Shown in pieces: positions 4,567-52,215 of a stretch of DNA of 64,000 nt. Where the stretch lies: assembly GCF_003334305.1 (NCBI RefSeq), contig NZ_QOWS01000004.1, one strand, 5' to 3'. The notes below the pieces were generated by a model. The model was not told where the DNA came from, ran no database searches, and worked only from the letters and a program-made list of their open reading frames with translations. The position numbers and the translations under genes are program-made. This DNA is from Escherichia coli (lineage in GTDB: Bacteria; Pseudomonadota; Gammaproteobacteria; Enterobacterales; Enterobacteriaceae). How positions within the stretch are numbered: position 1 is the first letter of the stretch; each line of letters begins with the position of its first letter.

Positions 4567-5573
4567 ATAATATCCAACTCGCCCACGGCAGCGGCGGCCA
4601 GGCGATGCAGCAATTAATCAACAGCCTGTTTATGGAAGCCTTTGCCAACCCGTGGCTGGCAGAGCAGGAAGATCAGGCACGTCTTGATCTGGCGCAGCTG
4701 GTAGCAGAAGGCGATCGTCTGGCGTTCTCCACCGACAGTTACGTCATTGACCCGCTGTTCTTTCCTGGCGGTAATATCGGCAAGCTGGCGATTTGCGGCA
4801 CTGCGAATGACGTTGCGGTCAGTGGCGCTATTCCGCGCTATCTCTCCTGTGGCTTTATCCTCGAAGAAGGATTGCCGATGGAGACACTGAAAGCCGTAGT
4901 GACCAGCATGGCAGAAACCGCCCGCACGGCAGGCATTGCCATCGTTACTGGCGATACTAAAGTGGTGCAGCGCGGCGCGGCAGATAAACTGTTTATCAAC
5001 ACCGCTGGCATGGGCGCAATTCCGGCGAATATTCACTGGGGCGCACAGACGCTAACCGCAGGCGATGTATTACTGGTTAGCGGCACGCTCGGCGACCACG
5101 GGGCGACTATCCTTAACCTGCGTGAGCAGCTGGGGCTGGATGGCGAACTGGTCAGCGACTGCGCGGTACTGACGCCGCTTATTCAGACGCTGCGTGACAT
5201 TCCCGGCGTGAAAGCGCTGCGTGATGCCACCCGTGGTGGTGTGAACGCGGTAGTTCATGAGTTCGCGGCAGCCTGCGGTTGTGGTATTGAAATTTCAGAA
5301 GCGGCACTGCCGGTTAAACCTGCTGTGCGCGGCGTTTGCGAACTGCTGGGACTGGACGCCCTTAACTTTGCCAACGAAGGCAAACTGGTGATCGCCGTTG
5401 AACGCAACGCGGCAGAGCAAGTGCTGGCAGCGTTACATTCCCATCCACTGGGAAAAGACGCGGCGCTGATTGGTGAAGTGGTGGAACGTAAAGGTGTTCG
5501 TCTTGCCGGTCTGTATGGCGTGAAACGAACCCTCGATTTACCACACGCCGAACCGCTTCCGCGTATATGCTAA
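4563..5573 (+). CDS. hypE: Hydrogenase maturation carbamoyl dehydratase HypE
   Basis: 336 aa; codon at 4563 is GTG; C-terminal PRIC motif. Confidence 0.9.
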   Translation: MNNIQLAHGSGGQAMQQLINSLFMEAFANPWLAEQEDQARLDLAQLVAEGDRLAFSTDSYVIDPLFFPGGNIGKLAICGTANDVAVSGAIPRYLSCGFILEEGLPMETLKAVVTSMAETARTAGIAIVTGDTKVVQRGAADKLFINTAGMGAIPANIHWGAQTLTAGDVLLVSGTLGDHGATILNLREQLGLDGELVSDCAVLTPLIQTLRDIPGVKALRDATRGGVNAVVHEFAAACGCGIEISEAALPVKPAVRGVCELLGLDALNFANEGKLVIAVERNAAEQVLAALHSHPLGKDAALIGEVVERKGVRLAGLYGVKRTLDLPHAEPLPRIC

Positions 5574-12738: not shown

Positions 12739-13647
12739 ATGAAAACGGGATCTGAGTTTCATGTCGGTATCGTTGGCTTAGGGTCAATGGGAATGGGAGC
12801 AGCACTGTCATGTGTCCGCGCAGGTCTTTCTACCTGGGGCGCAGACCTGAACAGCAATGCCTGCGCTACGTTGAAAGAGGCAGGTGCTTGCGGGGTTTCT
12901 GATAACGCCGCGACGTTTGCCGAAAAACTGGACGCTCTGCTGGTGCTGGTGGTCAATGCGGCCCAGGTTAAACAGGTGCTGTTTGGTGAAACAGGCGTTG
13001 CACAACATCTGAAACCCGGTACGGCAGTAATGGTTTCTTCCACTATCGCTAGTGCTGATGCGCAAGAAATTGCTACCGCTCTGGCTGGATTCGATCTGGA
13101 AATGCTGGATGCGCCAGTTTCTGGTGGTGCAGTAAAAGCCGCTAACGGTGAAATGACTGTCATGGCCTCCGGTAGCGATATTGCCTTTGAACGACTGGCA
13201 CCCGTGCTGGAAGCCGTTGCCGGAAAAGTTTATCGCATAGGTGCAGAACCGGGACTAGGTTCGACCGTAAAAATTATTCACCAGTTGTTAGCGGGCGTAC
13301 ATATTGCTGCCGGAGCCGAAGCGATGGCACTTGCAGCCCGTGCGGGGATCCCGCTGGATGTGATGTATGACGTCGTGACCAATGCCGCCGGAAATTCCTG
13401 GATGTTCGAAAACCGGATGCGTCATGTGGTGGATGGCGATTACACCCCGCATTCAGCCGTCGATATTTTTGTTAAGGATCTTGGTCTGGTTGCCGATACA
13501 GCCAAAGCCCTGCACTTCCCGCTGCCATTGGCCTCAACAGCATTGAATATGTTCACCAGCGCCAGTAACGCAGGTTACGGGAAAGAAGACGATAGCGCAG
13601 TTATCAAGATTTTCTCTGGCATCACTCTACCGGGAGCGAAATCATGA
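12739..13647 (+). CDS. ygbJ: NAD-dependent 3-hydroxyisobutyrate-dehydrogenase-family enzyme (L-threonate dehydrogenase type)
   Basis: 302 aa; N-terminal GxGxxG Rossmann motif. Confidence 0.88.
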   Translation: MKTGSEFHVGIVGLGSMGMGAALSCVRAGLSTWGADLNSNACATLKEAGACGVSDNAATFAEKLDALLVLVVNAAQVKQVLFGETGVAQHLKPGTAVMVSSTIASADAQEIATALAGFDLEMLDAPVSGGAVKAANGEMTVMASGSDIAFERLAPVLEAVAGKVYRIGAEPGLGSTVKIIHQLLAGVHIAAGAEAMALAARAGIPLDVMYDVVTNAAGNSWMFENRMRHVVDGDYTPHSAVDIFVKDLGLVADTAKALHFPLPLASTALNMFTSASNAGYGKEDDSAVIKIFSGITLPGAKS

Positions 13648-14906
13648 TCAAGATTGGCGTTATCGCCGATGATTTTACCGGCGCGACGGATATCGCCAGT
13701 TTTCTGGTGGAAAACGGTCTACCAACGGTACAAATTAACGGTGTTCCAACAGGTAAAATGCCGGAAGCAATCGACGCACTGGTGATCAGCCTGAAAACGC
13801 GCTCCTGTCCGGTGGTTGAAGCCACACAGCAATCGCTGGCGGCTCTGAGCTGGTTGCAACAGCAAGGTTGCAAACAGATCTATTTCAAATACTGCTCTAC
13901 TTTCGACAGTACGGCGAAAGGTAATATCGGCCCGGTTACCGATGCATTAATGGATGCTCTCGACACGCCGTTTACGGTCTTCTCTCCGGCCCTGCCGGTC
14001 AACGGACGTACGGTTTATCAGGGGTATTTGTTCGTAATGAATCAACTGCTGGCCGAATCCGGGATGCGCCATCACCCGGTAAATCCCATGACCGACAGCT
14101 ATCTTCCCCGTCTGGTTGAAGCGCAATCCACAGGGCGCTGCGGCGTCGTTTCGGCACATGTTTTCGAACAAGGTGTGGATGCCGTTCGTCAAGAGCTGGC
14201 TCGCTTACAGCAAGAGGGCTACCGCTACGCGGTGCTTGATGCGCTGACCGAACACCATCTGGAAATTCAGGGAGAAGCCTTGCGCGATGCCCCACTGGTA
14301 ACGGGTGGTTCTGGTCTGGCGATTGGCCTGGCCCGGCAGTGGGCGCAAGAAAACGGTAACCAGGCTCGCGAAGCAGGGCGTCCGCTCGCTGGGCGCGGCG
14401 TAGTGCTCTCCGGTTCATGCTCTCAAATGACCAACCGCCAGGTGGCACATTACCGTCAAATTGCACCAGCCCGTGAAGTTGATGTGGCACGCTGCCTCTC
14501 AACCGAAACTCTGGCCGCTTATGCACACGAACTGGCAGAGTGGGTTCTGGGCCAGGAAAGTGTACTTGCTCCACTGGTTTTTGCCACCGCCAGCACTGAC
14601 GCATTGGCAGCAATTCAACAGCAATACGGTGCACAAAAAGCCAGTCAGGCAGTAGAAACTCTATTTTCTAAACTAGCGGCGCGGTTAGCAGCGGAAGGCG
14701 TGACACGCTTTATTGTCGCAGGCGGTGAGACCTCCGGCGTAGTCACACAGAGCCTGGGCATAAAAGGGTTTCATATTGGCCCAACCATTTCTCCCGGCGT
14801 GCCGTGGGTAAACGCACTGGATAAGCCTGTCTCACTCGCCCTTAAATCTGGCAACTTCGGTGATGAAGCCTTTTTTTCACGAGCCCAAAGAGAGTTTTTA
14901 TCATGA
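13644..14906 (+). CDS. ygbK: Four-carbon acid sugar kinase (DUF1537; 3-oxo-tetronate kinase type)
   Basis: 420 aa starting MIKIGVIADDFTGATD; ATGA overlap with ygbJ. Confidence 0.85.
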   Translation: MIKIGVIADDFTGATDIASFLVENGLPTVQINGVPTGKMPEAIDALVISLKTRSCPVVEATQQSLAALSWLQQQGCKQIYFKYCSTFDSTAKGNIGPVTDALMDALDTPFTVFSPALPVNGRTVYQGYLFVMNQLLAESGMRHHPVNPMTDSYLPRLVEAQSTGRCGVVSAHVFEQGVDAVRQELARLQQEGYRYAVLDALTEHHLEIQGEALRDAPLVTGGSGLAIGLARQWAQENGNQAREAGRPLAGRGVVLSGSCSQMTNRQVAHYRQIAPAREVDVARCLSTETLAAYAHELAEWVLGQESVLAPLVFATASTDALAAIQQQYGAQKASQAVETLFSKLAARLAAEGVTRFIVAGGETSGVVTQSLGIKGFHIGPTISPGVPWVNALDKPVSLALKSGNFGDEAFFSRAQREFLS

Positions 14907-16410: not shown

Positions 16411-17775
16411 ATGTCCACAATTACATTGTTATGCATTGCGTTAGCTGGCGTAATCATGCTGTTGCTGCTGGTCATCAAGGCAAAGGTACAACCATTCGTT
16501 GCTCTGCTCCTCGTCAGCCTGTTAGTCGCACTTGCGGCGGGTATACCGGCGGGCGAAGTGGGTAAAGTGATGATCGCCGGGATGGGCGGTGTGCTTGGTT
16601 CCGTCACTATTATTATTGGTCTGGGCGCTATGCTGGGGCGTATGATCGAACACTCTGGTGGTGCAGAGTCACTGGCTAATTATTTCAGTCGCAAGTTAGG
16701 TGACAAACGAACTATCGCTGCGCTGACTCTGGCAGCGTTCTTCCTCGGTATTCCCGTCTTCTTTGATGTCGGCTTTATTATTCTTGCGCCAATCATTTAC
16801 GGTTTTGCCAAGGTTGCCAAAATATCGCCACTCAAATTTGGCCTGCCTGTCGCTGGAATCATGCTAACTGTTCATGTGGCGGTACCGCCGCATCCAGGCC
16901 CTGTCGCCGCAGCGGGGTTACTCCACGCAGACATCGGCTGGCTAACCATCATCGGTATTGCGATTTCTATTCCCGTAGGGATTGTTGGCTACTTTGCAGC
17001 GAAAATAATCAATACGCGCCAATATGCGATGTCGGTGGAAGTACTGGAACAGATGCAACTGGCTCCGGCCAGTGAGGAAGGCGCAACAAAATTAAGCGAT
17101 AAAATAAATCCACCGGGCGTCGCGCTGGTCACCTCGCTAATTGTTATTCCTATCGCGATTATCATGGCGGGTACGGTTTCCGCAACACTGATGCCGCCTT
17201 CGCATCCCCTGCTTGGTACGCTACAGCTGATCGGCTCACCAATGGTAGCTCTAATGATTGCGCTGGTGCTGGCATTCTGGTTATTGGCTTTACGTCGCGG
17301 CTGGAGCTTACAACACACCAGCGACATTATGGGCTCAGCCCTTCCCACTGCGGCGGTAGTGATTTTGGTTACTGGTGCTGGAGGGGTATTTGGCAAAGTG
17401 CTGGTGGAATCGGGCGTCGGCAAAGCCCTTGCCAATATGCTACAAATGATTGACCTGCCTCTGTTACCAGCCGCATTTATTATTTCACTGGCTCTGCGTG
17501 CATCGCAGGGGTCAGCAACCGTAGCAATCCTGACAACCGGCGGGTTACTCTCAGAAGCGGTGATGGGATTGAATCCGATTCAGTGCGTATTGGTGACGCT
17601 GGCAGCCTGCTTTGGTGGGCTTGGCGCGTCACATATTAATGACTCAGGGTTCTGGATTGTGACCAAATATCTGGGGTTGTCGGTAGCAGACGGTCTGAAA
17701 ACCTGGACAGTGTTAACGACCATTCTCGGTTTTACCGGATTCTTAATTACCTGGTGCGTATGGGCGGTAATTTGA
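16411..17775 (+). CDS. ygbN: GntP-family permease
   Basis: 454 aa, highly hydrophobic multi-pass protein. Confidence 0.88.
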   Translation: MSTITLLCIALAGVIMLLLLVIKAKVQPFVALLLVSLLVALAAGIPAGEVGKVMIAGMGGVLGSVTIIIGLGAMLGRMIEHSGGAESLANYFSRKLGDKRTIAALTLAAFFLGIPVFFDVGFIILAPIIYGFAKVAKISPLKFGLPVAGIMLTVHVAVPPHPGPVAAAGLLHADIGWLTIIGIAISIPVGIVGYFAAKIINTRQYAMSVEVLEQMQLAPASEEGATKLSDKINPPGVALVTSLIVIPIAIIMAGTVSATLMPPSHPLLGTLQLIGSPMVALMIALVLAFWLLALRRGWSLQHTSDIMGSALPTAAVVILVTGAGGVFGKVLVESGVGKALANMLQMIDLPLLPAAFIISLALRASQGSATVAILTTGGLLSEAVMGLNPIQCVLVTLAACFGGLGASHINDSGFWIVTKYLGLSVADGLKTWTVLTTILGFTGFLITWCVWAVI

Positions 17776-17784
17776 CCTTAATAA

Positions 17785-17815
17785 AAAGGTCCGATGGGCA
17801 TCGGACCTTTTATTT
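17785..17815. terminator. Bidirectional rho-independent terminator between ygbN and decarboxylase operon
   Basis: aaaggtccgatg-gg-catcggaccttt, 12-bp perfect stem followed by T-rich run. Confidence 0.65.
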
Positions 17816-18050
17816 AACGCTTACCTTCCACCAGCAGCGGCGGGATGCTCGGCACCATTGGCGCGTCATCAATATCTTTCTGCGTCATGCGGAACGCTTC
17901 GGGATAATGTTCGCGGCTGGTACGGCGCAGCGGTTCGGTATCGCGCCAGGTATAAAGGCAATGCTGGCACTGATATACCGTCCAGACATCTTTCACCGGC
18001 GATTTCGCCATCACTTCAATCTGTTCATCGGCACAACGTGGACAAATCAT
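17814..18050 (-). CDS. ecdD: Small zinc-ribbon subunit of UbiD-type hydroxyarylic acid decarboxylase (EcdD/VdcD/BsdD family)
   Basis: 78 aa with CPRC...CQHC; immediately downstream of the UbiD-like gene. Confidence 0.75.
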   Translation of the reverse strand: MICPRCADEQIEVMAKSPVKDVWTVYQCQHCLYTWRDTEPLRRTSREHYPEAFRMTQKDIDDAPMVPSIPPLLVEGKR

Positions 18051-18060
18051 CTTCTTCTCC

Positions 18061-19488
18061 TTATTTACGTGCAGCCAGCATAGCGGTCAGTTTTTCAGCC
18101 CAGGCTTTGGTTTCCGGTAAATCCACCACCGGTTGGCTGTAGTGACCACGGTTGTCCGGGGCGACAGGCGTAGTGGCGTCGATAATCAGCTTGTCGGTGA
18201 TCCCCGCAGGGCTTGAGCCTGGATCGAGTTCCAGCACGGACATATTCGGCAACTGCACCAAATCCCCTGCCGGGTTCACTTTCGAGGAGAGCGCCCACAT
18301 CACCTGCGGCAGGTTGAACGGGTCAACGTCTTCATCGACCATAATCACCATCTTCACGTAGCCCAGACCATGCGGCGTGGTCATTGCGCGCAGGCCCACC
18401 GCGCGGGCAAAGCCGCCGTAGCGTTTTTTGGTGGAGATAATCGCCAGCAGGCCATGGGTGTACATGGCGTTTACCGCCTGCACTTCAGGGAACTCGGCTT
18501 TCAGCTGCTGATACAGCGGCACGCAGGTGGCTGGCCCCATCAGGTAGTCGATTTCGGTCCACGGCATACCGAGGTACAGCGATTCGAAAATCGGCCTGGT
18601 GCGGTAAGAGACTTTATCGATGCGCACCACGGTCATGTTACGCCCGCCGGAGTAGTGCCCGGTAAACTCACCGAACGGCCCTTCGATTTCGCGTTTACGG
18701 CTTTCGATAACCCCTTCGAGGATCACTTCTGAACCCCACGGCACATCAAAACCGGTCAGCGGGGCGGTGGCGATCGGGTACGGGCTTTCACGCAGCGCGC
18801 CTGCCATTTCATACTCAGACTGATCGTATTTCAGCGGCGTGGCCCCCATCAGCGTGATGATCGGATCGTTACCGAGCGTGATCGCAATCGGCAGATCTTC
18901 ACCGCGCTCTTCTGCTTTATGCAGATGCAGGGCGATATCGTGCATCGGCACCGGTTGCAGGCCGAGCTTACGCTTGCCCTTCACTTCCATGCGGTAGATG
19001 CCGACGTTCTGCTTGCCGAAGTTATCTGGGTCGAGCGGATCGCGGGAAACCACGCAGGCTTTGTCGAGATAGAAACCGCCATCGCCATCGTTTAAACGAA
19101 ACAGCGGCAGGATATCGAACAGGTTAATCTCTTCGCCATCGACGGTGTTCTGCGCCCAGGCTGGATTGGCGCGGCGCTCCGGGGCAATCGGGAAGTTATC
19201 CCAGCGGCGGATAAACTCATCAATCTGCTTTTTGACCGGGGTGTTTGGTGGCAGGCCAAGGGAAATCGCGTGGTTCTGCCAGGAACCGATGGTATTCATC
19301 GTCACGCGGGCATCGGTAAAGCCGCGAATATTATCAAACCACAGCGCGGGCGCGCCGTCGCCGATACGCCCGGTGGCGTTAGCTGCTGCTGCCAGATCCG
19401 GCTCAGCGTTCACCTCTTCGCTGATTTTCAGTAACTGGCCGTGGTCATCAAGCGCCTGTAAAAAGCTGCGTAAATCATCAAATGCCAT
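18061..19488 (-). CDS. ecdC: UbiD-family reversible (de)carboxylase (EcdC/VdcC/BsdC type)
   Basis: 475-aa ORF recognised as a UbiD-family decarboxylase; ATGA overlap with the upstream UbiX-like gene. Confidence 0.85.
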   Translation of the reverse strand: MAFDDLRSFLQALDDHGQLLKISEEVNAEPDLAAAANATGRIGDGAPALWFDNIRGFTDARVTMNTIGSWQNHAISLGLPPNTPVKKQIDEFIRRWDNFPIAPERRANPAWAQNTVDGEEINLFDILPLFRLNDGDGGFYLDKACVVSRDPLDPDNFGKQNVGIYRMEVKGKRKLGLQPVPMHDIALHLHKAEERGEDLPIAITLGNDPIITLMGATPLKYDQSEYEMAGALRESPYPIATAPLTGFDVPWGSEVILEGVIESRKREIEGPFGEFTGHYSGGRNMTVVRIDKVSYRTRPIFESLYLGMPWTEIDYLMGPATCVPLYQQLKAEFPEVQAVNAMYTHGLLAIISTKKRYGGFARAVGLRAMTTPHGLGYVKMVIMVDEDVDPFNLPQVMWALSSKVNPAGDLVQLPNMSVLELDPGSSPAGITDKLIIDATTPVAPDNRGHYSQPVVDLPETKAWAEKLTAMLAARK

Positions 19489-20081
19489 TATTCATTCTCC
19501 TGAGAAAAATTCCGGGCCTGCGGCAATCCTTGCCAGCGCCTGGCATGGGGATGTTCGAGGCCAAATTTATCCAGCACGCGGGCTACCACATGGTGGACAA
19601 TGTCATCTACCGTTTCGGGATGGTTATAAAAGGCAGGCATCGGCGGCACCATCGCCACGCCCATGCGTGAAAGTGCGAGCATATTTTCGAGATGGATGGT
19701 GCTAAGCGGCATTTCACGCGGCACCAGCACCAGTTTGCGGCCTTCTTTGAGCACGACGTCCGCCGCGCGCCCTACCAGGCCATCGGCGTAACCAGCGCGG
19801 ATACCGGCGAGCGTTTTCATACTGCACGGAATAACGATCATGCCGTCGGTACGAAAAGAACCGGATGAGATGATCGCCGCCTGATCCGCCGGGTTATGGC
19901 TGAAGTCTGCGAGGGCAGCAACATCGCGAGCGCTGTAAGGCGTTTCCAGTTCAATGGTGGTTTTCGCCCACTTCGACATCACCAGATGAGTCTCGACATT
20001 CGGCATCTCCCGCAGCGCTTGCAGTAATGCCACACCAAGAGGCGCACCGGTAGCCCCTGTCATCCCGACGATCAGTTTCAT
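19488..20081 (-). CDS. ecdB: UbiX-family flavin prenyltransferase (EcdB/Pad1 type)
   Basis: 197 aa starting MKLIVGMTGATGAPLG. Confidence 0.85.
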   Translation of the reverse strand: MKLIVGMTGATGAPLGVALLQALREMPNVETHLVMSKWAKTTIELETPYSARDVAALADFSHNPADQAAIISSGSFRTDGMIVIPCSMKTLAGIRAGYADGLVGRAADVVLKEGRKLVLVPREMPLSTIHLENMLALSRMGVAMVPPMPAFYNHPETVDDIVHHVVARVLDKFGLEHPHARRWQGLPQARNFSQENE

Positions 20082-20097
20082 TGCTTATCCTCTTAAT

Positions 20098-20113
20098 TGT
20101 TCGTATACGAACA
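20098..20113. promoter_or_regulatory. Perfect 16-bp palindrome, candidate MarR-family operator
   Basis: tgttcgtatacgaaca lies 17 bp upstream of ecdB ATG in the divergent promoter region shared with the MarR-like gene. Confidence 0.5.
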
Positions 20114-20227
20114 TTATTATTAACATACTCCTTCATTTCCACAGCGGCAAGGATTGAAAAGTAACAACATCTTCTTCGTCACTAAAAAACCGCTATGATA
20201 GCGACAGAGAATTAGCCCGGAGTTTAC

Positions 20228-20635
20228 ATGGCGTTACGAAATAAAGCGTTCCATCAGTTACGACAGCTTTTTCAGCAGCACACGGCTCGCTGGCAGCACG
20301 AGTTACCTGACCTGACCAAACCACAGTACGCGGTGATGCGCGCCATTGCTGATAAACCTGGTATCGAACAGGTGGCACTGATAGAAGCAGCTGTCAGCAC
20401 CAAAGCAACGTTAGCAGAAATGTTGGCAAGAATGGAAAATCGTGGCTTAGTCAGACGTGAACATGACCCCGCTGATAAGCGGCGACGCTTTGTCTGGTTG
20501 ACTGCCGAAGGCGAAAAGATACTTGCTGCGGCGATACCCATTGGTGACAGCGTGGATGAGGAATTTTTGGGGCGTTTGAGTGGAGAAGAGCAGGAGCTGT
20601 TTATGCAGCTGGTGCGCAAGATGATGAACGCATAG
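20228..20635 (+). CDS. MarR/SlyA-family transcriptional regulator
   Basis: 135 aa; divergent from the decarboxylase operon. Confidence 0.85.
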   Translation: MALRNKAFHQLRQLFQQHTARWQHELPDLTKPQYAVMRAIADKPGIEQVALIEAAVSTKATLAEMLARMENRGLVRREHDPADKRRRFVWLTAEGEKILAAAIPIGDSVDEEFLGRLSGEEQELFMQLVRKMMNA

Positions 20636-20646
20636 GGGGCAAATTT

Positions 20647-20682
20647 CCGGATGCGACGCTATCGCGTCTTATCCAGACTACA
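20647..20682. repeat. REP-like palindromic element
   Basis: ccggatgcgacgctatcgcgtcttatccagactaca resembles the REP sequences at 42680 and 49183. Confidence 0.5.
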
Positions 20683-20710
20683 AATACACCGACTCACCAA
20701 CCGAAAGAAA

Positions 20711-35352: not shown

Positions 35353-36408
35353 TTACGCGCAGATAAAGTCCAGCACGTCCTTCATGCTTCCCTGTTTGTT
35401 CATCACGTCAAAACTTGCGCATTCGGTCTTCTGTTCGTAGACCGTATTCATGTTTTCGCGAAGCGTTGTAATACGCTGCACCGCCACATCTAACTGACGT
35501 GTGCCATTAATGGGTTCATAGAAAGCCGCCGCCAGAGAGCGTGGTTGATCGGTGCCTTTTTCTGCCAGCGCCCAGGAGGCGTAGGCACGGCTGGCAAAGC
35601 TGTTCTGTTTGCCGGTTGGGGAGACTTTAAGTGCGGCTTCCGTAAAGGCACGTATGGTCTGATTAGCTAACGCTTCGTCACCGCCAAGGTTTTCGACCAG
35701 CAGATCTTTATCAATGCAGATATAGGTGTAGAACAGTGCAGAACCGAATCCGGTTTCACCAAGATGCCCGGCACCGGCATCTTCAGAAGCCTGGCGCAAA
35801 TCATCAACGGCGGTGAAAAAATCATCTTCGACAATCGTTTCACTGACACCAAATGCGTGCGCTACCTGGCAGGCGGCTTCAACATTAAACTCGGGTTTAT
35901 TCGCCAGCATACGACCAGACATGGCAATATCTACCGCCATACGGTCTTTGCGTAACAACGCGAGATCTTCCTCTTTTGGCGCGCGCTTTTCTTCTGCAAG
36001 CTGATGGGCCAGCGCTTTTACGGCGTCAAATTCTGCCGGGCTGATATGGACTAACTGTTCAGTTTCGGCGTTAGTGAGCGGATCTTTTGGTTTTTTGTCG
36101 TTTTTAGCTTTCCCAAGATAATCTGCAATTTTTGCCGCCCATTCGATGGCTTTTTTCTCTTCGATTCCTTTCTCAATCAGGATAGTTGCCGCCTCACGCG
36201 CAATACGCCCACTGCGAATACCAATATGGCCCGCCAGTGCCTGTTCAAAAAGTGCAGAAGTGCGCCACGCACGTTTCAGACTTTTCGAGGAAACGCGCAG
36301 ACGCGTTGCTCCACCCAGCACCACAGTTTTTGGCGCACCGGTATCATCACGGTTAAGGTTGGCAGCAGGGTAAGCGGTTAACAAATGAAGCTGAATAAAT
36401 GTTGTCAT
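35353..36408 (-). CDS. casC: Cascade subunit CasC/Cas7e
   Basis: 351 aa, ...YPAANLNRDDTGAPKT... Confidence 0.92.
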   Translation of the reverse strand: MTTFIQLHLLTAYPAANLNRDDTGAPKTVVLGGATRLRVSSKSLKRAWRTSALFEQALAGHIGIRSGRIAREAATILIEKGIEEKKAIEWAAKIADYLGKAKNDKKPKDPLTNAETEQLVHISPAEFDAVKALAHQLAEEKRAPKEEDLALLRKDRMAVDIAMSGRMLANKPEFNVEAACQVAHAFGVSETIVEDDFFTAVDDLRQASEDAGAGHLGETGFGSALFYTYICIDKDLLVENLGGDEALANQTIRAFTEAALKVSPTGKQNSFASRAYASWALAEKGTDQPRSLAAAFYEPINGTRQLDVAVQRITTLRENMNTVYEQKTECASFDVMNKQGSMKDVLDFICA

Positions 36409-36419
36409 GAGATAGTCCT

Positions 36420-36956
36420 TTATTGATTTTGTTCGTTATCGGCGTCGCCAGCCTGGTAATATTCCAGCGCCCAGCGGATACGGATAAATTCGGTTGGCCG
36501 CTGCTGGCGGCGGTGATGATTGAGCAGGTCGTCGCTCTCCTGGCACCAACGGAAGACCCCCTCTGCCAGAGAGTCAAGATTGACGGAACCGTTTAATAAT
36601 CTGACTGCGCGGCGTAACTGGCGCAGTAATTCATCCGGTGTTTTTACTGCCGACAGACGAGTAAAACGCCCCTTTGACATTACCGCCGCCAGCTGCGCGG
36701 CAAAAGGCTGCCGTTCATCAATAGCTTTAACATTGGCGCTAACTGCGGCTATCAGCGCCAGTGCGGTGATACGCCACTCAGGTTCATCCTGCCACTTTAT
36801 TTGTCTGTTCTTCAGAAACAGGCGAAATCCATCCGTCAGACAAACATCATTAACCGTCGTACTACGCCGCAGACTGGCACGTTCGCCACGTTTCTCCTGC
36901 AATTCCTCGTGCCATTTGCGCAGCGTGGCTTTGTGCTCCTCTTTTACAATACTCAT
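36420..36956 (-). CDS. casB: Cascade small subunit CasB/Cse2
   Basis: 178 aa; position between casA and casC. Confidence 0.85.
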   Translation of the reverse strand: MSIVKEEHKATLRKWHEELQEKRGERASLRRSTTVNDVCLTDGFRLFLKNRQIKWQDEPEWRITALALIAAVSANVKAIDERQPFAAQLAAVMSKGRFTRLSAVKTPDELLRQLRRAVRLLNGSVNLDSLAEGVFRWCQESDDLLNHHRRQQRPTEFIRIRWALEYYQAGDADNEQNQ

Positions 36957-38515
36957 TCAGCAGCCTCCTGCTTTTTCTCCCTGGCGGCTTTAGCACTTTG
37001 CTTCTCCGCCGATGTTGTGAAATATTTCTTGCGCGCGGTCATAACGCGTTTCAAATCAACAGGCTCATATGGATTGGTGAATACACGCTCGTCAAAATCC
37101 TGACGCGCGAATAACCAAATTTCCTTTTGCCATTTGCCGAGTAATTCGTCCGCATCCTGACCTTCTTCAATTTGGCGCACTAACCTCAGGAAGCGATGCT
37201 GAGTTTTGTTCCAGAAGTCGATATCCACAAAACTGAAATCACCCCGTGCACCTTTTGGATCGGAGAACCACGCTTCTTTCAATGCACTTCGTAACAGACT
37301 TAGAATCCGTGAAGCCGTTTGCGCAGCCAGACGCAGTTTCGGTATCTGGCCTTCTTTTTTCTTGAGCAGCAGCGGGAAATGGTGTTCGTACCAACAGCGC
37401 GCTTTCATGTTGTCGAAATCATAGCCAAATCCCCACAGGCCTACTTTTGCCTGTTTCAGACTGCTGGCATTAAAGAGTTTCACCACCAGCGCGGGAAGTT
37501 CCGTATTGTTTTCTGATTTACCCGTTTCGATAAGGCCTAACCAGTCGCGCCAGATTAAACCGCCCGGTTGTGGTTTGACCGAGTAAAACTCGCCCCCCTC
37601 TTTAAGTGGTATACGGTAAGGCGTTAAGGGATGCTGCCACATGGCATAATTCGCACCGTAATTTTTGGTCGTCATCAGGCTCAGGAGCGCGTCGCTCTGT
37701 TCACCGCAAATATCGCAGTTGCCGACTGTCGTGGTATTAAAATCAATACGAATACGGCGCGGCATTCCCCAGTAAGCCTGGAGTTTATTGACCTGATCAT
37801 GGGTTACCACCGCACCGGCCAGTTCGCTGGTTCGCGTCGGGCCAAGCCAGGGGAAAACCAGATCGTCAAATTTTTTGGGTAGCGGTAAGTCGGCTTCATC
37901 CTGCGGCATCACATTGGGCCACAGTTTGCGCCACAAGGGCGTTTGTTGATTGCCTTGATATTCCTGTAATTCAATCAGAGTGGTCATCGGCCCACCGCCG
38001 CGCAAACCGGTGCGATAGCCTTTGCCGCCTGATGGCGCATTTAACTGTAGGGAGAACAGAGCTAACGCGGAACAATGAGGGCATACGTGTTCAGTCACGC
38101 CACGCTTAATAAAGTGGTCTTTATTAAACTTCGTTGTTTGAGCGCCGGGAATCTCAGGCAGTAGCGAAGCGACCTGAACTTTATCTCCCTTGAGCGCCTC
38201 GAAATCCTGCATAAATGAAGGGGAATCTGCCCCAAACTGGAAAGCGTGTTCTAAGGACAGCAATGCTTCCCGTAGCTTTTCAGCCTCCAGTCCGTCTTCC
38301 CAGATATCATCCCAACGACCGTGATTTTTGGGCGCGAAGCTGGTTTGTAGTAGCCCCAGCAAAAACTGCCAGGCCGCACCCTGGAGATCTGCCCGCGGCG
38401 CAGCGATATCGACAACATTTTCATCAGCCAGATCGACTGGTGCCAGCTTGCCTGTCGTTCCGTCTTTAAAACGAACAGGCAACCACGGGGTTGTCAGAAG
38501 TGAAAACGAGTTCAT
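36953..38515 (-). CDS. casA: Cascade large subunit CasA/Cse1
   Basis: Start chosen at MNSFSLLTTPWLPVR (520 aa), preceded by GAGAGG at 6-nt spacing; the track ORF extends to 38584 (543 aa). Confidence 0.85.
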   Translation of the reverse strand: MNSFSLLTTPWLPVRFKDGTTGKLAPVDLADENVVDIAAPRADLQGAAWQFLLGLLQTSFAPKNHGRWDDIWEDGLEAEKLREALLSLEHAFQFGADSPSFMQDFEALKGDKVQVASLLPEIPGAQTTKFNKDHFIKRGVTEHVCPHCSALALFSLQLNAPSGGKGYRTGLRGGGPMTTLIELQEYQGNQQTPLWRKLWPNVMPQDEADLPLPKKFDDLVFPWLGPTRTSELAGAVVTHDQVNKLQAYWGMPRRIRIDFNTTTVGNCDICGEQSDALLSLMTTKNYGANYAMWQHPLTPYRIPLKEGGEFYSVKPQPGGLIWRDWLGLIETGKSENNTELPALVVKLFNASSLKQAKVGLWGFGYDFDNMKARCWYEHHFPLLLKKKEGQIPKLRLAAQTASRILSLLRSALKEAWFSDPKGARGDFSFVDIDFWNKTQHRFLRLVRQIEEGQDADELLGKWQKEIWLFARQDFDERVFTNPYEPVDLKRVMTARKKYFTTSAEKQSAKAAREKKQEAAE

Positions 38516-38612
38516 ACGCATCCTCTCGTAAAAAAGACCATCCCAGGTCGGTTGTCCATCTTTCCATCCTTTTCGGTGTATCAACTATTCAGAGAGTCCT
38601 GTCGCAGACATC

Positions 38613-41312
38613 TCAACCAACCTTGCCAATCAATCCTTCCGTAGCCGAATACCCGCAACTTTCGTCATCGTTGACTAAAATCACGTTTGCCATCTCCGGA
38701 TCTTGTCGCTGTTCAATGCACCACAGCCTGAACGCCTCTCCCTCCAGTAAAGAAAACTCATCCCGATGTTTTTTCCACCAGCTTCGGCGCACTCTGACAA
38801 CGCTCATTTCCCATGCGTGAGCACCGGTGGCATAAGGCTTCACCACACCGTCAATACAGGTAGCCAGCCACAGGGAAACAGACTCCTCAGCCAGACGTGT
38901 CGACAGTTTTTCCGGGAGGTAATCGTTGATATTGGCGGCATAGCCGGGCCTGAAGTTCAGCACAAACTTTTTAGCCATTGCGCGATCGCAGTAATATTTG
39001 CCCACTTGCTCCTGCTCGCTGCGGGCAAATCCTTCCGGCATTACCACGTCCTCACCGTAGACGGATTCAATAAGAAGCCGGGCTGCGTATGGCATCTGAA
39101 TAGCACCTTGCTCACGCAGCACACGCTGCGTCAGCCAGATTCGCCCATGATCGGGATAGACAAATGCACTGTTACGCATGGCACTGCCAAACCATTCGTC
39201 GCCAGGAGAGTCGTCCCAGACGGGAGCCAGAATCAGCAATTCAGGGGGGGAACGCTCGTCCTTTCCGTCACGCTTTAACTGACCATTAATATCGCGGATA
39301 TGCCGCTGTAATCGTCCTGCTCGCTGAATCAGCAAATCAACAGGGGCCAGGTCGGAGATCATTTCGTCCAGGTCAATATCCACGCTTTGCTCAATTACTT
39401 GTGTACAAACAATGACTTGCGACGCTCTCTGTAAACTACAATATTTACCAAAGCGTGCCAGTGTCTCCGTTTCAATTCGCTGGCGATCGCTAAAAGCAAA
39501 GCGGCTATGAAAAAGTGAAAGGCTGGAAGCAGGAATGACGCCGCGGGCAAGCAGCTGACGATGAACCTTAATAGCGTCATCGACAGAATTCCGGATCCAG
39601 GCGATGCATTTCCCCTGACTTACCGCCGATTCGATACGCGCAATACACTCTTGTTCACTATGAAGCCAACCCACGCTGACGCTACGCTCAACGTCTTTGC
39701 GCGTCGCTACCCGGTGTGAGTTCACATCGGATTTCGTGACATGCGTCAGCCAGGGGTAATCATCCTTTTCCAGGAACGGAGCTTCTTGCAGGCCCTCTGT
39801 ACCCCGCGCAAAGGCAGCGACGAGTTTGTCGCGCTGCTGTTGAGATAACGTGGCAGAAAGCAAAATAACGCTGTTTCCGCCACGCGCCTGCCGCTCGATC
39901 AACCCTTCAAGAATGCACGACATGTAAGCGTCACAGGCGTGGATCTCATCAGCCAGCAGGATTTTGTTACTCAGCCCCAGAAGCCGCAGATTATTATGTT
40001 TGAACGGCATCACCGCCATCATCGCCTGATCCAGCGTGCCGACGCCAATTTCAGCCAGCAACGCCTTCTTGTTACTGTCGGCAAACCAGGCCGCACATCC
40101 CTGACTGAACGTTTGTTCATCCGGTTCTTCTGACCCGACTAAATCACCAGACCAGAGTGATTCATTAAAGCGGTCCATTAATGTGCGGGCACTATGTGCC
40201 AGCACCAGGCTGGGGCGGGATTCTGGCGAATAGAAAGCAAGCCAGGTTTTGACCAGCCGATCGTACATGGCATTGGCCGTTGCCATTGTTGGCAGACCAA
40301 AAAACAGCCCCTGAGCTTTCCCCGCAGCTATCAACCTGTGCGCCAGGATAAGCGCCGCTTCTGTTTTACCTGCGCCAGTCACATCTTCCAGAATAAATAA
40401 CTGCGGTCCTTGCTGGCTGATATCCAGATCCAGCACCTTTTGCTGTAACGGTGTCGGATTCTCAATAAAAGGAAACAGCGTATTAATTCCGTTGAAAGGC
40501 GCGACTTTTGCTTTTAGAGGAAAGACGGTTAAGGCGTTTTGAGCCTGAATTAAAGTTTTCTGCCAGTAACCTTTAATATCCATTGGGTGTGCGACGCGTG
40601 GAAAAAATCGCGTTGACGAACCCGTCCAGTCTGCGAGCACGACGGTTGCAGAGATATACCAGGAAAGGTGTTTTATAAGTTCAATGCCCTCATCATCATC
40701 CCAGAATGCGGGGATCTCTATGAGCGGAAACAGTGGTTTGATTTCAAGGAGAAAATCTCGTGCTGCAGCTTTGTCTTCAGGCAGAAAATTATCCAATTCA
40801 TCCATACGATCAGGGGGCCGACCATGATGCCCTGTCGTCACGGGCATCCACATTTCTATCACTCGCCTAAGTTTGCGCGGAGAGAGCGAAGATGAAGGAA
40901 GTAACTCCTGACATTCACTTAAATAATGATTCCACAACCAGTAGCCCAGCGTTGAATGAGAGATTTTTTCGTAATTTTTTCTGGCACCTTCCTGAATCTT
41001 GAGTTCAGGGGGCAGGTAAAGTTGTTGAAAAGAGCGGGCAAATTTTCCAATATCGTGCCAGCACAGCAACCAGGCGAAAAATTGAGCCGCCTGTTCCTTG
41101 TCAGAAATCCCTAATTGACGAAAATAATCAGCCAGCCCGAAGCAATTTCTTTTAACCATTAAATAGCCCATCGCGGCTACATCCAGCGAATGCCAGCAAA
41201 GAAGGTGATAGTCGTCGCCCCCGTCTTTCTCGCCGCGTCGGGTTTTTCCCCAGAAATCAAAAAAAGTCACAATATTTTTATCCTTCAGTAAACTTAAAGG
41301 ATATTTACGCAT
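38613..41312 (-). CDS. cas3: CRISPR-associated helicase-nuclease Cas3 (HD nuclease + DEAD/DEAH helicase)
   Basis: 899 aa; N-terminal HD motif (HDIGKF) and helicase motif GAGKTEAAL. Confidence 0.93.
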   Translation of the reverse strand: MRKYPLSLLKDKNIVTFFDFWGKTRRGEKDGGDDYHLLCWHSLDVAAMGYLMVKRNCFGLADYFRQLGISDKEQAAQFFAWLLCWHDIGKFARSFQQLYLPPELKIQEGARKNYEKISHSTLGYWLWNHYLSECQELLPSSSLSPRKLRRVIEMWMPVTTGHHGRPPDRMDELDNFLPEDKAAARDFLLEIKPLFPLIEIPAFWDDDEGIELIKHLSWYISATVVLADWTGSSTRFFPRVAHPMDIKGYWQKTLIQAQNALTVFPLKAKVAPFNGINTLFPFIENPTPLQQKVLDLDISQQGPQLFILEDVTGAGKTEAALILAHRLIAAGKAQGLFFGLPTMATANAMYDRLVKTWLAFYSPESRPSLVLAHSARTLMDRFNESLWSGDLVGSEEPDEQTFSQGCAAWFADSNKKALLAEIGVGTLDQAMMAVMPFKHNNLRLLGLSNKILLADEIHACDAYMSCILEGLIERQARGGNSVILLSATLSQQQRDKLVAAFARGTEGLQEAPFLEKDDYPWLTHVTKSDVNSHRVATRKDVERSVSVGWLHSEQECIARIESAVSQGKCIAWIRNSVDDAIKVHRQLLARGVIPASSLSLFHSRFAFSDRQRIETETLARFGKYCSLQRASQVIVCTQVIEQSVDIDLDEMISDLAPVDLLIQRAGRLQRHIRDINGQLKRDGKDERSPPELLILAPVWDDSPGDEWFGSAMRNSAFVYPDHGRIWLTQRVLREQGAIQMPYAARLLIESVYGEDVVMPEGFARSEQEQVGKYYCDRAMAKKFVLNFRPGYAANINDYLPEKLSTRLAEESVSLWLATCIDGVVKPYATGAHAWEMSVVRVRRSWWKKHRDEFSLLEGEAFRLWCIEQRQDPEMANVILVNDDESCGYSATEGLIGKVG

Positions 41313-41507
41313 ATATTAAAAATTATCTGTGATATATATCATTCAATAAAATATTTACATTATGAATAATCAAATAATTTTCATCCGTAATATATATGAA
41401 TAATAAACATAGGCATAATATTCACATAAACAATATAAATTAAAAAAGGGTGCAGGAGACCAAACCATCACAATTCAGTACGCGGGGTTTTACCCCCGCG
41501 TGGTGGC

Positions 41508-41660
41508 TACTTCTTCGATTCGTAAGCGAGAACTGCCTTAAACTCCATACCACGTTCTCTGATACTCAACTCACACAACGAGTCGCCTACCATCAGCGTG
41601 AATCCCAGTACTGTAAAACACAGCACTATGATTGCCACAAGGGCATATTTTGTCAGCATG
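41508..41660 (-). CDS. hokX: Hok-family type I toxin (50 aa), not present in the ORF track
   Basis: Manual translation of the minus strand from ATG 41660-41658, preceded by GGGAGG: [50 protein letters not shown], stop TAG. Hok/Gef signature; the hokX symbol is from memory of the K-12 cysH-cas3 gap. Confidence 0.85.
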
Positions 41661-41923
41661 TCTTGCCTCCCTGCAAAGAAGAGACTAACATTCGAATTGT
41701 TTGGGTTCGAACGTAAGCCTCAGGTTGATAGAAATATCGCCTGGGGCTTTTGTCCATCTGGAACCTCGCGAATGCTTAACGCCAGACAGCCTCAAGCACC
41801 CGACGCCATTCTATACCTGATAATTCTTCCAGCGGCGTTCACGTTTAAAATCAGGAATACTGCTCGCAAAATAAAAACGCCCCCATCATTTCTGACAGAG
41901 GCGTTTAATTTATCCGGCAATAT

Positions 41924-50124: not shown

Positions 50125-50900
50125 GGCTGCATCCTTTGGCGTAAATAGTCCTGCCATAGCTTTTGAGCTTTTTCTGCTACCGTTTGCCCATCAATCAGCG
50201 TCGCTCCGCGTCGTTGCTCTGCTCTTGCCAGTTGCAGACACTGCATCGCTGGCATTTCGGCAGCAACAGTTTTACGGATAATTTCTGCTTTCCCCGCAGC
50301 CATTCGCTGGCGCATTCCCGGTACTGGCAAGGCCACTTCACCGCACTGACGCACGGCAATCACCGCAGGCAAGCGAACCCGGCAACAACGCAAACCATGT
50401 TCAGTACGCTGTTCGAGGGTGATAAACAGCGCGTCGAGAGTGAAACGCTCCACCTGGGTGAAGCAGGGCCAGCCCAGCATTTCCGCCAGCAAAAATGGCG
50501 TTTGCCCATTCTGCCCTTCGCTGCTTTGGCAGCCGGTAATTATCAGATCCAGCGGATTCTGATGCTGCCATTCGGCAATATGGCGAGCGACAAATTCCGG
50601 CGCAAAGCGCAGATCTGCCGCCGTCTCCAGCAATACAGCTTCCTCAAACCCAAGAGCCATGAGATAGCGCAGCCAGTGCAATGCCCGTTCATCCCCCATG
50701 CTCAACGCGGTTAAAGACATCGGCGTACCGTTTTTTCTCTGCGCCAACAGCAGCGCGGCAGCGGCCTGTTCATCAGCACCGAGTAAACTTCGCAGTAGCG
50801 AAATATCCGGTCCGCTTTTACCCTGAGCCGCCGCCTGCCACTCTTTTTCCGCCAGCATTCCGGCATCCGGTTCGGCTTTAAACGCTAACAGAATGTTCAT
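50121..50900 (-). CDS. ygcR: Electron transfer flavoprotein beta subunit (FixA-like)
   Basis: Start chosen at MNILLAFKAEPDAG (259 aa); ATGA overlap with ygcQ. Confidence 0.85.
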   Translation of the reverse strand: MNILLAFKAEPDAGMLAEKEWQAAAQGKSGPDISLLRSLLGADEQAAAALLLAQRKNGTPMSLTALSMGDERALHWLRYLMALGFEEAVLLETAADLRFAPEFVARHIAEWQHQNPLDLIITGCQSSEGQNGQTPFLLAEMLGWPCFTQVERFTLDALFITLEQRTEHGLRCCRVRLPAVIAVRQCGEVALPVPGMRQRMAAGKAEIIRKTVAAEMPAMQCLQLARAEQRRGATLIDGQTVAEKAQKLWQDYLRQRMQP

Positions 50901-52215
50901 TCGCACCTCCTACATTTCCCGCCGCCACCAGCGGGAGGGCTTTAGTTTCTGGTGCCCATAGCCAGGTCACAACAAAACCAACCAACAACACTGTCGCCAG
51001 GAGCAATAAGGTGACTTGCATTCCCCACTGCGCCAGCACCCACGGCAGCAGGCCAGTACTTACCGCCGCGCCAAGTCGACTCATGGCGGTGGCAAAACCG
51101 ACGCCCAGCGAGCGAATGTCAGTAGGAAAACTTTCCGCAGGCAAAATGCCCACCAGATTACTGACTGCCGAAATGGTGGTGCTGAAGAGAACAAAAAGCA
51201 GCAGCGTTAATGAACTGCCGGAAGGCAAACAGGCCATGACTACCAGCGTTGCCGCCAGCAGCAAAAAACTTCCCAGCAAAAATTTGCGATGTGCCAGCAG
51301 GTGCGTCAGAACTAATCCCAGCAGCGCGCCCACAATTAACAACGCATTAAGCATCAGGCTGGCAGTCAGCGCATCTTCCAGACCAATAGTCTGGGCGATA
51401 GTTGGCAGCCAGGTATAAATCACAAACCATGGGATTACGAGGCAGACAAAGAAGACGCTGTTAAACGCCGTTCGCCGCCAGTAACGCGAAGAGAACAAGG
51501 TTTTGATGTGTTTATGGGTCGCCGTTACCACTTCATCGCCCAGTAAAACATGGGGACCAAAATAGCGATGCACGATAGCGTGAGCTTCTGCAAAACGCCC
51601 CTGGCGCAGTAGCCAGCGTGGTGATTCTGGCGTTCCCCAGCGTAATAACGTAATCAACAACGCGGGCAGAGCTGCCGATGCCAGTAGCCAGCGCCAGGCC
51701 TCCGGGTTTTCGGAAATAAAGTGATGTCCGGCAATACTTGCCAGCACATAGCCTACGGTCCACACCACGCTGAATGCGCCCAGCAAAATACCGCGATGGC
51801 GGCGCGGGGAAAATTCAGCCAGCAAGGTGTGACCTACTGAATAATCGCCTCCCAGACCAATGCCAATCAAAATGCGCAGTCCAATAAGATGCTCTGGCGT
51901 GGTGGCAAAAAATTGTAAAAACGAAGCAAGCGTAATCAGCAAAAAGCTGAAGGTGAAGATTTTTTGCCGACCAATATGGTCGGAGATCCACCCAAGAACC
52001 AGGCTGCCAAGGAACAAACCAAGGAGCGCCGAGCCGCCGATCATTCCCGCCATAAACGGCGTCAGTTGCATGGCGGGCGTAAGCTGAATAATGGCGTAAC
52101 CAATGACGCCGAGAACATAACCGTCGGTCAGGTGTGCGCCGAAAGTGAGCGCAGCAATGCGGCAGTGAAAACGGTTAAGCGGTAAATCATCCATTCGCAC
52201 CGGTGAAGTGTTCAT
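50878..52215 (-). CDS. ygcS: MFS transporter (sugar/metabolite:H+ symporter type)
   Basis: Start chosen at MNTSPVRMDDLPLNRF (445 aa); 12-TM-like hydrophobicity. Confidence 0.85.
   Translation of the reverse strand: MNTSPVRMDDLPLNRFHCRIAALTFGAHLTDGYVLGVIGYAIIQLTPAMQLTPFMAGMIGGSALLGLFLGSLVLGWISDHIGRQKIFTFSFLLITLASFLQFFATTPEHLIGLRILIGIGLGGDYSVGHTLLAEFSPRRHRGILLGAFSVVWTVGYVLASIAGHHFISENPEAWRWLLASAALPALLITLLRWGTPESPRWLLRQGRFAEAHAIVHRYFGPHVLLGDEVVTATHKHIKTLFSSRYWRRTAFNSVFFVCLVIPWFVIYTWLPTIAQTIGLEDALTASLMLNALLIVGALLGLVLTHLLAHRKFLLGSFLLLAATLVVMACLPSGSSLTLLLFVLFSTTISAVSNLVGILPAESFPTDIRSLGVGFATAMSRLGAAVSTGLLPWVLAQWGMQVTLLLLATVLLVGFVVTWLWAPETKALPLVAAGNVGGANEHSVSV

Follow-up and report, generated by a model that had tools for sequence, protein, structure and literature searches.

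The window, a 64,000-nt stretch of Escherichia coli contig NZ_QOWS01000004.1, carries an operon of three genes and a divergent regulatory gene between ygbN and rpoS (Table 1). The genes for subunits B, C and D are read in that order from the minus strand, with a 1-nt overlap at the B/C border and a 10-nt gap between C and D, and the MarR-family gene hosA is read from the plus strand. A first-pass annotation of the same DNA had named a UbiX-like gene, a UbiD-like gene, a small zinc-ribbon subunit and a divergent MarR-family regulator between ygbN and rpoS; all four coincide to the base with open reading frames within the stated range (17814-20635), and both flanking genes were found. The DNA of strain H15 is 100% identical to the window and its genes are annotated alike in RefSeq. 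The module is a real, intact and already characterized E. coli gene cluster. An Rfam scan returned no RNA family within or beside it. For each of the four products, the structure of a near-identical or clearly homologous protein has already been solved.

Table 1. Features of the ygbN-rpoS interval and its flanks (positions in the window).
Feature	Position	Strand	Details
ygbN (o454), flanking gene	16411-17775	+	
Hairpin, A-run on one side and T-run on the other	17778-17817		Inverted repeat, 19-nt arms, 89% complementary
D subunit gene	17814-18050	-	78 aa
C subunit gene	18061-19488	-	475 aa
B subunit gene	19488-20081	-	197 aa; B stop overlaps C start
Predicted HosA operator	20098-20113		Perfect 16-bp palindrome TGTTCGTATACGAACA, 17 bp upstream of B start codon
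Candidate B-C-D promoter	20122-20150	-	-35 TTGCCG (20150-20145), 17-nt spacer, -10 TATGTT (20127-20122)
Candidate hosA -10	20194-20199	+	TATGAT, 29 bp upstream of hosA ATG, within small palindrome 20189-20205
hosA (MarR-family gene)	20228-20635	+	135 aa; divergent from B-C-D
Presumed REP-like palindromic element	20647-20681		CCGGATGCGACGCTATCGCGTCTTATCCAGACTAC, downstream of hosA
rpoS, flanking gene	20756-21748	-	

Gene products and regulatory signals

The family matches of B, C and D lie far beyond chance, as judged from sequence comparison. B is predicted to be a UbiX-type flavin prenyltransferase making the prFMN cofactor. It scored 308.9 bits against the NCBIfam VdcB model (NF041206; cut-off 290) and is identical at 194 of 197 positions (98.5%) to Pad1 of E. 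coli O157:H7 (PDB 1SBZ). The BagM/FevK model gave B a higher raw score than VdcB (338.8 bits), yet one below its own cut-off of 420.

C is probably a UbiD-family, prFMN-dependent, reversible 4-hydroxybenzoate/vanillate decarboxylase. It scored 788.7 bits against the NCBIfam VdcC model (NF041204; cut-off 650), carries the Pfam domains UbiD_N, UbiD and UbiD_C, and aligned end to end with crystallized ShVdcC (PDB 7AE4 chain A; E = 1.6e-160). R166 of C aligns with ShVdcC R168, equivalent to R173 in the catalytic E-R-E triad of Fdc1; N161, R166, E225 and E269 are common to E. coli UbiD in the alignment, and E269 and E274 both lie in the motif EGPFGE (residues 269-274). The UbiD-like protein keeps the conserved active-site residues. 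By Fdc1 numbering, N161, H183 and E225 would be the metal ligands.

D appears to be a zinc-ribbon protein of the VdcD/EcdD/KpdD class that would bind C and activate it allosterically. It scored 121.2 bits against the NCBIfam VdcD model (NF041205; cut-off 30), matched ShdD of PDB 7AE4 (E = 4e-11), and contains two CxxC pairs (C3/C6 and C28/C31) as well as the contact residues R36 and E39. The role of D-type subunits and the two-CxxC requirement have been described, as has the requirement of VdcD for VdcC activity (PMC8379154). C-D pairing as in the window is found in Sedimentibacter hydroxybenzoicus VdcCD (ShdCD; 7AE4, 7AE5 and 7AE7) and in Bacillus subtilis BsdBCD/VdcBCD. ShVdcCD and the window proteins share the catalytic arginine, the zinc cysteines of D and the proline-rich D tail (IPPL). 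ShdCD belongs to a different phylum, however; its D alignment is weaker than that of C, and the salt-bridge pair ShVdcD R12/ShVdcC D173 corresponds to E12/G171 in the window proteins.

The hosA product is identical at 131 of 134 positions (98%; E = 3e-83) to PDB 8AGA, entitled "Transcriptional regulator HosA", and all other MarR equivalog models scored below their own cut-offs on it. It is predicted to be a MarR-family winged-helix repressor of the B-C-D operon that responds to 4-hydroxybenzoate. For HosA itself, repression of the operon and 4-hydroxybenzoate as the effector have been described (Roy & Ranjan 2016, as relayed in PMC6261655), and release of UMN026 HosA by 4-hydroxybenzoate was seen in EMSA, with a Kd of 4.7 µM (PMC6261655).

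HosA of E. coli UMN026/EPEC has the divergent layout of the window and an operator at the same position relative to the B start. The predicted operator TGTTCGTATACGAACA has no second match in the window at a tolerance of up to 3 mismatches, and it occupies the same place as the experimental HosA binding site (PMC6261655 supplement). The UMN026 site differs from this perfect palindrome by one extra T (GTTTCGTATACGAAC). In 65 loci from other species, conservation of the operator core GTTCGTAnACGAAC is 90% or higher at all but two positions, which stand at 70-90%. Many other genera carry a second copy, CGTATACGAAC, ~60 bp upstream, which E. coli lacks.

With transcription from the candidate B-C-D promoter, the operator would span roughly +2 to +18; across genera, conservation at the TTG and TA..T positions of this promoter is 90% or higher. 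The consensus scan also returned an overlapping alternative B-C-D promoter at 20141-20113; a sigma-70 scan gave no more sites than in shuffled sequence. On the hosA side, the tat.ATagc block around the candidate -10 is conserved across genera. The small palindrome that contains it was considered as a terminator shielding the operon from rpoS read-through and was rejected on the grounds that its stem is not conserved across genera; since only the TATGAT-like core is conserved, a hosA -10 is the simpler reading.

The hairpin downstream of D, whose tail includes the D stop codon (17814-17816), would serve as a bidirectional intrinsic terminator common to the convergent ygbN (plus strand) and B-C-D (minus strand) transcripts. 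Downstream of hosA, the palindromic element, presumably REP-like by the REP consensus, possibly forms the hosA 3' end. B2 strains have a similar element at the matching relative position.

Polymorphism within E. coli and distribution across genera

Base-by-base comparison of the junctions placed 8 bp, GTGCACAG, in K-12 MG1655 where the window has positions 17815-20709 (2,895 bp); the MG1655 ygbN-rpoS spacer is 93 bp. The terminator hairpin is also the left junction of this difference, K-12 identity continuing through 17814. A count over 5,426 complete E. coli genomes gave 2,379 carriers of the module (~44%), with every copy on the chromosome. The module is therefore not ubiquitous at the locus, and its absence from K-12, as stated in the first-pass annotation, is borne out. 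That annotation had also referred the site to the known mutS-rpoS polymorphic region, with which the segment agrees: it is the published "2.9-kb" mutS-rpoS (o454-nlpD) polymorphism in the arrangement called pattern IV. The 2.9-kb segment was reportedly described by LeClerc in 1999 and by Herbelin in 2000. As in pattern IV, ygbN is kept, kpdD-C-B and a slyA-like gene precede rpoS, and K-12 is without the module. The EPEC-type pattern IV has ygbN (o454) on its left (PMC4209514). B2 strains carry other genes in place of the module, and the K-12 8-bp filler GTGCACAG was sought in the B2-type insert and was absent. Used as a strain marker, the module types the window as o454-nlpD pattern IV, neither K-12 nor B2.

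The pad1-yclC-yclD (ecdBCD) genes of E. coli O157:H7 and EPEC, with their slyA-like hosA, match the window in genes, order and chromosomal site. O157-like pattern I strains, in which the module has ~95% DNA identity to that of the window, lack ygbI-ygbN and have D joined to pphB, whereas the window holds the pattern IV allele.

Among the best 80 species loci, HosA was adjacent in 76; at a distance of no more than 6 kb, rpoS was found in 51 and mutS in 47. The hosA-BCD module sits between rpoS and mutS in Citrobacter, Klebsiella, Enterobacter, Kluyvera, Leclercia, Kosakonia, Atlantibacter and others. Judged by this synteny, hosA-BCD has long resided between mutS and rpoS in Enterobacteriaceae, most of whose genera have it there, and because it is so placed, the K-12 state is most simply explained as a loss. 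Klebsiella and Enterobacter species have the module at the same mutS-rpoS site, with C 96-97% identical to that of the window; B is 84-89% and HosA 72-82% identical, and in some of these species hosA and rpoS are separated by ~2.5 kb of additional DNA.

Identity to Pseudocitrobacter is uneven. At the DNA level it is 92-97% for C and D, ~80% for B, 70% for hosA, 85% for mutS and 89% for rpoS, and the jump falls exactly at the B/C border (~19480). With C and D at 92-97% against 70-86% for B, hosA and mutS, purely vertical descent fails for the module as a whole. Tentatively, and with rather less than even confidence, the C-D core of E. coli may be mosaic, having been swapped by recombination between Escherichia and a lineage resembling Pseudocitrobacter. 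In that case sub-operon pieces would be traded at the mutS-rpoS hot spot across genera, not just within E. coli.

It is improbable that the module is instead a recent, horizontally acquired island in the lineage of the window, with the K-12 arrangement ancestral. Such an origin would suit the GC content of B and C (57-58%, against 51.8% for the window), the patchy presence within E. coli, the near-identity of C-D to Pseudocitrobacter and the "promiscuous origin" named in the title of LeClerc's 1999 paper. However, the same module occupies the same mutS-rpoS site in many genera, mutS itself has 56% GC, and allele replacement by recombination accounts for the mosaic without a new insertion. No flanking direct repeats or target duplication, terminal inverted repeats, IS ends or integrase were found at the segment 17815-20709, no tRNA in the window, and no plasmid copy of the module among the 5,426 complete genomes; in these respects the module is unlike a mobile genomic island.

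Predicted function and competing enzyme readings

The module is very probably a HosA-regulated, non-oxidative hydroxyarylic acid decarboxylase operon that converts 4-hydroxybenzoate to phenol, an old Enterobacteriaceae resident lost from K-12-like E. coli. The following mechanism draws on family knowledge and on near-identity to characterized proteins. B would prenylate reduced FMN to prFMN; C would bind prFMN and, in complex with D, reversibly decarboxylate 4-hydroxybenzoate to phenol, and C and D would probably also convert vanillate to guaiacol. HosA bound to its operator, which would overlap the start of the B-C-D transcript, would block transcription, and 4-hydroxybenzoate would free HosA, the substrate in this way inducing its own removal. 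The operon transcript would end at the bidirectional terminator common with ygbN.

The substrate is assigned from orthology and from the effector of the regulator. The first-pass annotation had called the substrate not obvious from sequence; it is indeed unreadable there, but it is no longer an open question, the HosA effector being 4-hydroxybenzoate and the kpdBCD product being phenol in the literature. Klebsiella kpdBCD converts 4-hydroxybenzoate to phenol according to Lupa (2005), as given in PMC6424909. C of K. oxytoca, K. michiganensis, K. indica and K. grimontii is ~97% identical to that of the window, and formation of phenol from 4-hydroxybenzoate has been reported for K. pneumoniae KpdBCD and for the Enterobacter cloacae 4-hydroxybenzoate decarboxylase.

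Operation in the opposite direction in vivo, as a phenol carboxylase assimilating phenol, is very unlikely. The family is reversible and is named in the literature as decarboxylases/phenol carboxylases; the inducer, however, is the acid and not phenol, and enterobacteria bearing homologues yield phenol in the literature. At ambient CO2 carboxylation is disfavoured thermodynamically, and E. coli is not known to possess a pathway that degrades 4-hydroxybenzoate anaerobically.

Still less weight is given to B and C being a spare UbiX and UbiD of the ubiquinone pathway, acting on 3-polyprenyl-4-hydroxybenzoate. B is a genuine UbiX-family prenyltransferase that could supply prFMN to UbiD, and all three UbiD domains are present in C, but C is only 29% identical to MG1655 UbiD and scored 172.8 bits against the UbiD equivalog, below its cut-off of 788. 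UbiD has no counterpart of the D subunit that C would require, a repressor sensing 4-hydroxybenzoate suits catabolism or detoxification, and ubiquinone is made in K-12 although the module is missing there. Just as implausible is a decarboxylase for protocatechuate (AroY-type) or gallate (LpdC-type): AroY structures of the same UbiD superfamily are detectable as homologues of C (5O3M, E = 1e-27; 5NY5, E = 4e-25) and homologues of B and D serve to boost AroY in engineering work, but the VdcC/ShdC match is far stronger, AroY works without a D subunit in the literature while the window operon retains D, and the cognate regulator answers to 4-hydroxybenzoate.

As a 4-hydroxybenzoate decarboxylase, the module would enable ~44% of sequenced E. 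coli to turn 4-hydroxybenzoate into phenol, a gut-derived toxin precursor. The operon, its regulator and the polymorphism are already known and ordinary. New, but minor, are the cross-genus synteny, the conservation of the HosA operator across genera and the closeness of C-D to Pseudocitrobacter; the synteny clarifies in which direction the polymorphism ran (K-12-like strains lost the module) and raises no new question. HosA is already in use as a 4-hydroxybenzoate biosensor. The operon is named differently from paper to paper, as pad1-yclC-yclD, ecdBCD, kpdBCD or hadBCD.

Gene layout and protein families

The window spans the E. coli chromosome from hycC to pyrG and was identical to strain H15 (100%) across the tested 3.1 kb, with the same four products named in the H15 RefSeq annotation. 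The ORF list reproduced exactly the extent first proposed for the four genes (17814-20635), with ygbN to the left and rpoS, with nlpD, to the right. The B stop codon and the C start codon overlap (ATGA), and 10 nt separate C from D, a compact layout expected of one transcript.

Feature coordinates within the window (- and +, strand)
Feature	Position	Strand	Remark
ygbN	16411-17775	+	left neighbour of module
Hairpin	17778-17817		A-run before, T-run after; D stop codon inside
D (zinc-ribbon subunit)	17814-18050	-	78 aa, complete ORF
C (UbiD-type decarboxylase)	18061-19488	-	475 aa, complete ORF
B (UbiX-type flavin prenyltransferase)	19488-20081	-	197 aa, complete ORF
Candidate B-C-D promoter	-35 20150-20145, -10 20127-20122	-	conserved pair; inferred
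hosA (MarR-type gene)	20228-20635	+	135 aa, complete ORF
rpoS	20756-21748	-	right neighbour of module
CRISPR array adjoining cas genes	31897-32535		H15 annotation
hok/sok parts: Hok/Gef family CDS + sok RNA (Rfam RF01794, 113 bits)	41385-41537, 41644-41801
ygcS (MFS transporter)	50756-52164		frameshifted pseudogene per identical H15 record
Second CRISPR array, near queE	58235-59056		H15 annotation

Proteins were scored against NCBIfam models with curated cut-offs: B, VdcB (308.9; cut-off 290); C, VdcC (788.7; 650); D, VdcD (121.2; 30). In the same scan of the module proteins, none of the models for UbiD proper, phenylphosphate carboxylase or BagN/BagM reached its cut-off. C carries three Pfam UbiD domains and aligned along its whole length with Sedimentibacter VdcC/ShdC, for which a crystal structure exists (7AE4; E 1.6e-160). 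Counted along this alignment, R166 of C (motif N161-V-G-I-Y-R166) occupies the position of ShVdcC R168, equated with Fdc1 R173 of the catalytic E-R-E triad (PMC8379154); both glutamates lie within E269-G-P-F-G-E274. Identity to E. coli UbiD is only 29%, with N161, R166, E225 and E269 invariant nonetheless. Loss of the prFMN-site residues had been set beforehand as grounds for rejecting the first reading; since these four residues and EGPFGE are kept, that objection falls. D has CxxC pairs (C3/C6 and C28/C31) of the kind that are zinc ligands in ShVdcD (PMC8379154), and retains R36 and E39 (salt bridges to VdcC) and the proline-rich tail. B matched PDB 1SBZ (O157:H7 'Pad1' UbiX-like protein) at 194/197 residues and the regulator PDB 8AGA ('Transcriptional regulator HosA') at 131/134. 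Family scores and structure matches thus agree with the first-pass annotation of UbiX-like, UbiD-like and zinc-ribbon genes with a divergent MarR regulator.

Regulation and substrate

The B-hosA divergent intergenic region (146 bp) contains one perfect 16-bp palindrome, TGTTCGTATACGAACA (20098-20113), which was the sole match within 64 kb with 3 mismatches tolerated. The PMC6261655 supplement gives GTTTCGTATACGAAC as the HosA site used for EMSA and interferometry, in the context TAATAATAAC-site-AATTAAGAGAATAAACATG; relative to the B start codon, the window palindrome lies where that supplement places the site. Over 65 species loci the operator core GTTCGTAnACGAAC was conserved at 90% or more, save two positions at 70-90%. 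A promoter-like pair just upstream (TTG...17 nt...TA..T) and a TATGAT-like block preceding hosA were likewise conserved at 90% or more. In 28 of the best 80 loci (353 relatives) the exact 12-mer was present once, in the same position. Counted from the candidate promoter, the operator reaches from about +2 to +18, which fits repression by occlusion. The hairpin at the D end of the module probably ends both the ygbN and the B-C-D transcripts.

A second copy of CGTATACGAAC was observed ~60 bp upstream of the main operator in many other genera, by comparison of intergenic regions from other genomes (L029, L034, L074, L049, L053, L071 and L083) with window 20150-20175; in this alignment no second HosA site was recognisable in E. 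coli.

In these families B synthesises prFMN, C performs reversible aromatic (de)carboxylation with prFMN, and D is an obligatory allosteric partner (PMC8379154; PMC5779730). E. coli expressing K. pneumoniae kpdBCD formed phenol from 4-hydroxybenzoate (Lupa 2005, as reported in PMC6424909), and C is 96-97% identical to Klebsiella and Enterobacter C proteins. HosA is freed from operator DNA by 4-hydroxybenzoate, with a measured Kd of 4.7 uM in that study (PMC6261655), and represses the decarboxylase operon (Roy & Ranjan 2016, as cited in PMC6261655). The substrate had been called not obvious from sequence; because of the kpdBCD activity, the C identity and the 4-hydroxybenzoate-sensing repressor, it is, judged by orthology and effector, most probably 4-hydroxybenzoate, and we do not regard the question as open.

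Polymorphism and origin of the module

Walking from both sides, identity to K-12 stopped at 17814 and restarted at 20710; between these junctions K-12 has GTGCACAG versus 2,895 bp in the window, and the MG1655 ygbN-rpoS spacer is only 93 bp. Absence from K-12, initially proposed, was thereby borne out. Coverage of the 3.1-kb query reached 80% or more in 2,379 of the 5,426 complete E. coli genomes, always on the chromosome, so the module is not ubiquitous. In K-12-like genomes the flanks alone matched; in O157-like genomes D adjoins pphB, ygbI-ygbN are missing and the module allele is ~95% identical to that of the window; in B2 genomes its place is taken by genes for an MBL-fold hydrolase and a flavodoxin. 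With that of the window, these arrangements correspond to the four o454-nlpD patterns already published, of which the window is pattern IV (PMC4209514), placing it in the known mutS-rpoS polymorphic region, as proposed; the 2.9-kb segment was first described by LeClerc et al. 1999, according to PMC4209514. No integrase, tRNA, IS end or target duplication was found flanking 17815-20709.

The interval from hosA to the rpoS terminator holds a REP-like palindrome (20647-20681). B2 strains with the other genes have a similar element at the same relative position (L088, a compared locus, about 4880-4940), so the right-hand junction may be common to both alternative inserts.

Relatives of C were scanned using one genome per species (353 relatives; counts from the best 80 loci). 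D was adjacent in 79/80, HosA in 76/80 and B in 66/80; rpoS lay within 6 kb in 51/80, with mutS on the other side in 47/80. Genera included Citrobacter, Klebsiella, Enterobacter, Kluyvera, Leclercia, Lelliottia, Kosakonia, Atlantibacter, Pseudocitrobacter, Franconibacter and Mangrovibacter; the module was inverted in Phytobacter and in Salmonella enterica subsp. arizonae and diarizonae. Its recurrence beside rpoS and mutS in many genera argues that the module belongs to the ancestral mutS-rpoS interval of Enterobacteriaceae. Deletion is the simplest account of the K-12 state. As YgbM occurred in 1 and YgbN in none of these best 80 loci, the ygbI-N cluster seems to have been added in Escherichia. 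The system is already known (genes, structures, regulator, effector, population distribution); the direction of change, a probable deletion in K-12, is a modest addition here.

C is 85-88% identical in DNA to most genera, comparable to mutS (82-84%) and rpoS (85-92%). Against three Pseudocitrobacter genomes (L010-L012), C and D reached 92-97%, versus ~80% for B, ~70% for hosA, ~85% for mutS and ~89% for rpoS. This identity step at the B/C border (near 19480) suggests a recombination mosaic in which the C-D piece was swapped across genera, in agreement with the 'chimeric, promiscuous origin' that the 1999 paper reportedly has in its title.

In 11/80 species loci hosA stood directly beside C with no B detected upstream (L046, L056, L057, L065, L067, L073, L076, L077, L079, L082, L086; examples are Pluralibacter, Cedecea, Chimaeribacter, Rouxiella, some Rahnella and Erwinia endophytica); such lineages may draw prFMN from housekeeping UbiX. 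In some Klebsiella, Enterobacter, Leclercia and Lelliottia species (L017, L019, L020, L025, L027, L028, L044, L047, L064) rpoS is ~2.5 kb farther from hosA than in E. coli, which implies extra genes between them.

Other features of the window

The window encodes an intact RpoS whose sole difference from MG1655 is at residue 33 (E in the window, Q in MG1655); in C600, a K-12 derivative, the rpoS annotation shows an internal stop. In otnK/ygbK (13644-14906), MG1655 carries a 1-bp deletion at window 14792 that truncates YgbK to 388 aa (420 aa in the window strain), which suggests that the K-12 gene is the mutant form. According to the annotation of the identical H15 record, the window has a complete type I-E CRISPR-Cas system (cas3, casA-E, cas1, cas2; 31897-41190). 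The cas3-cysH interval holds a chromosomal hok/sok toxin-antitoxin locus.
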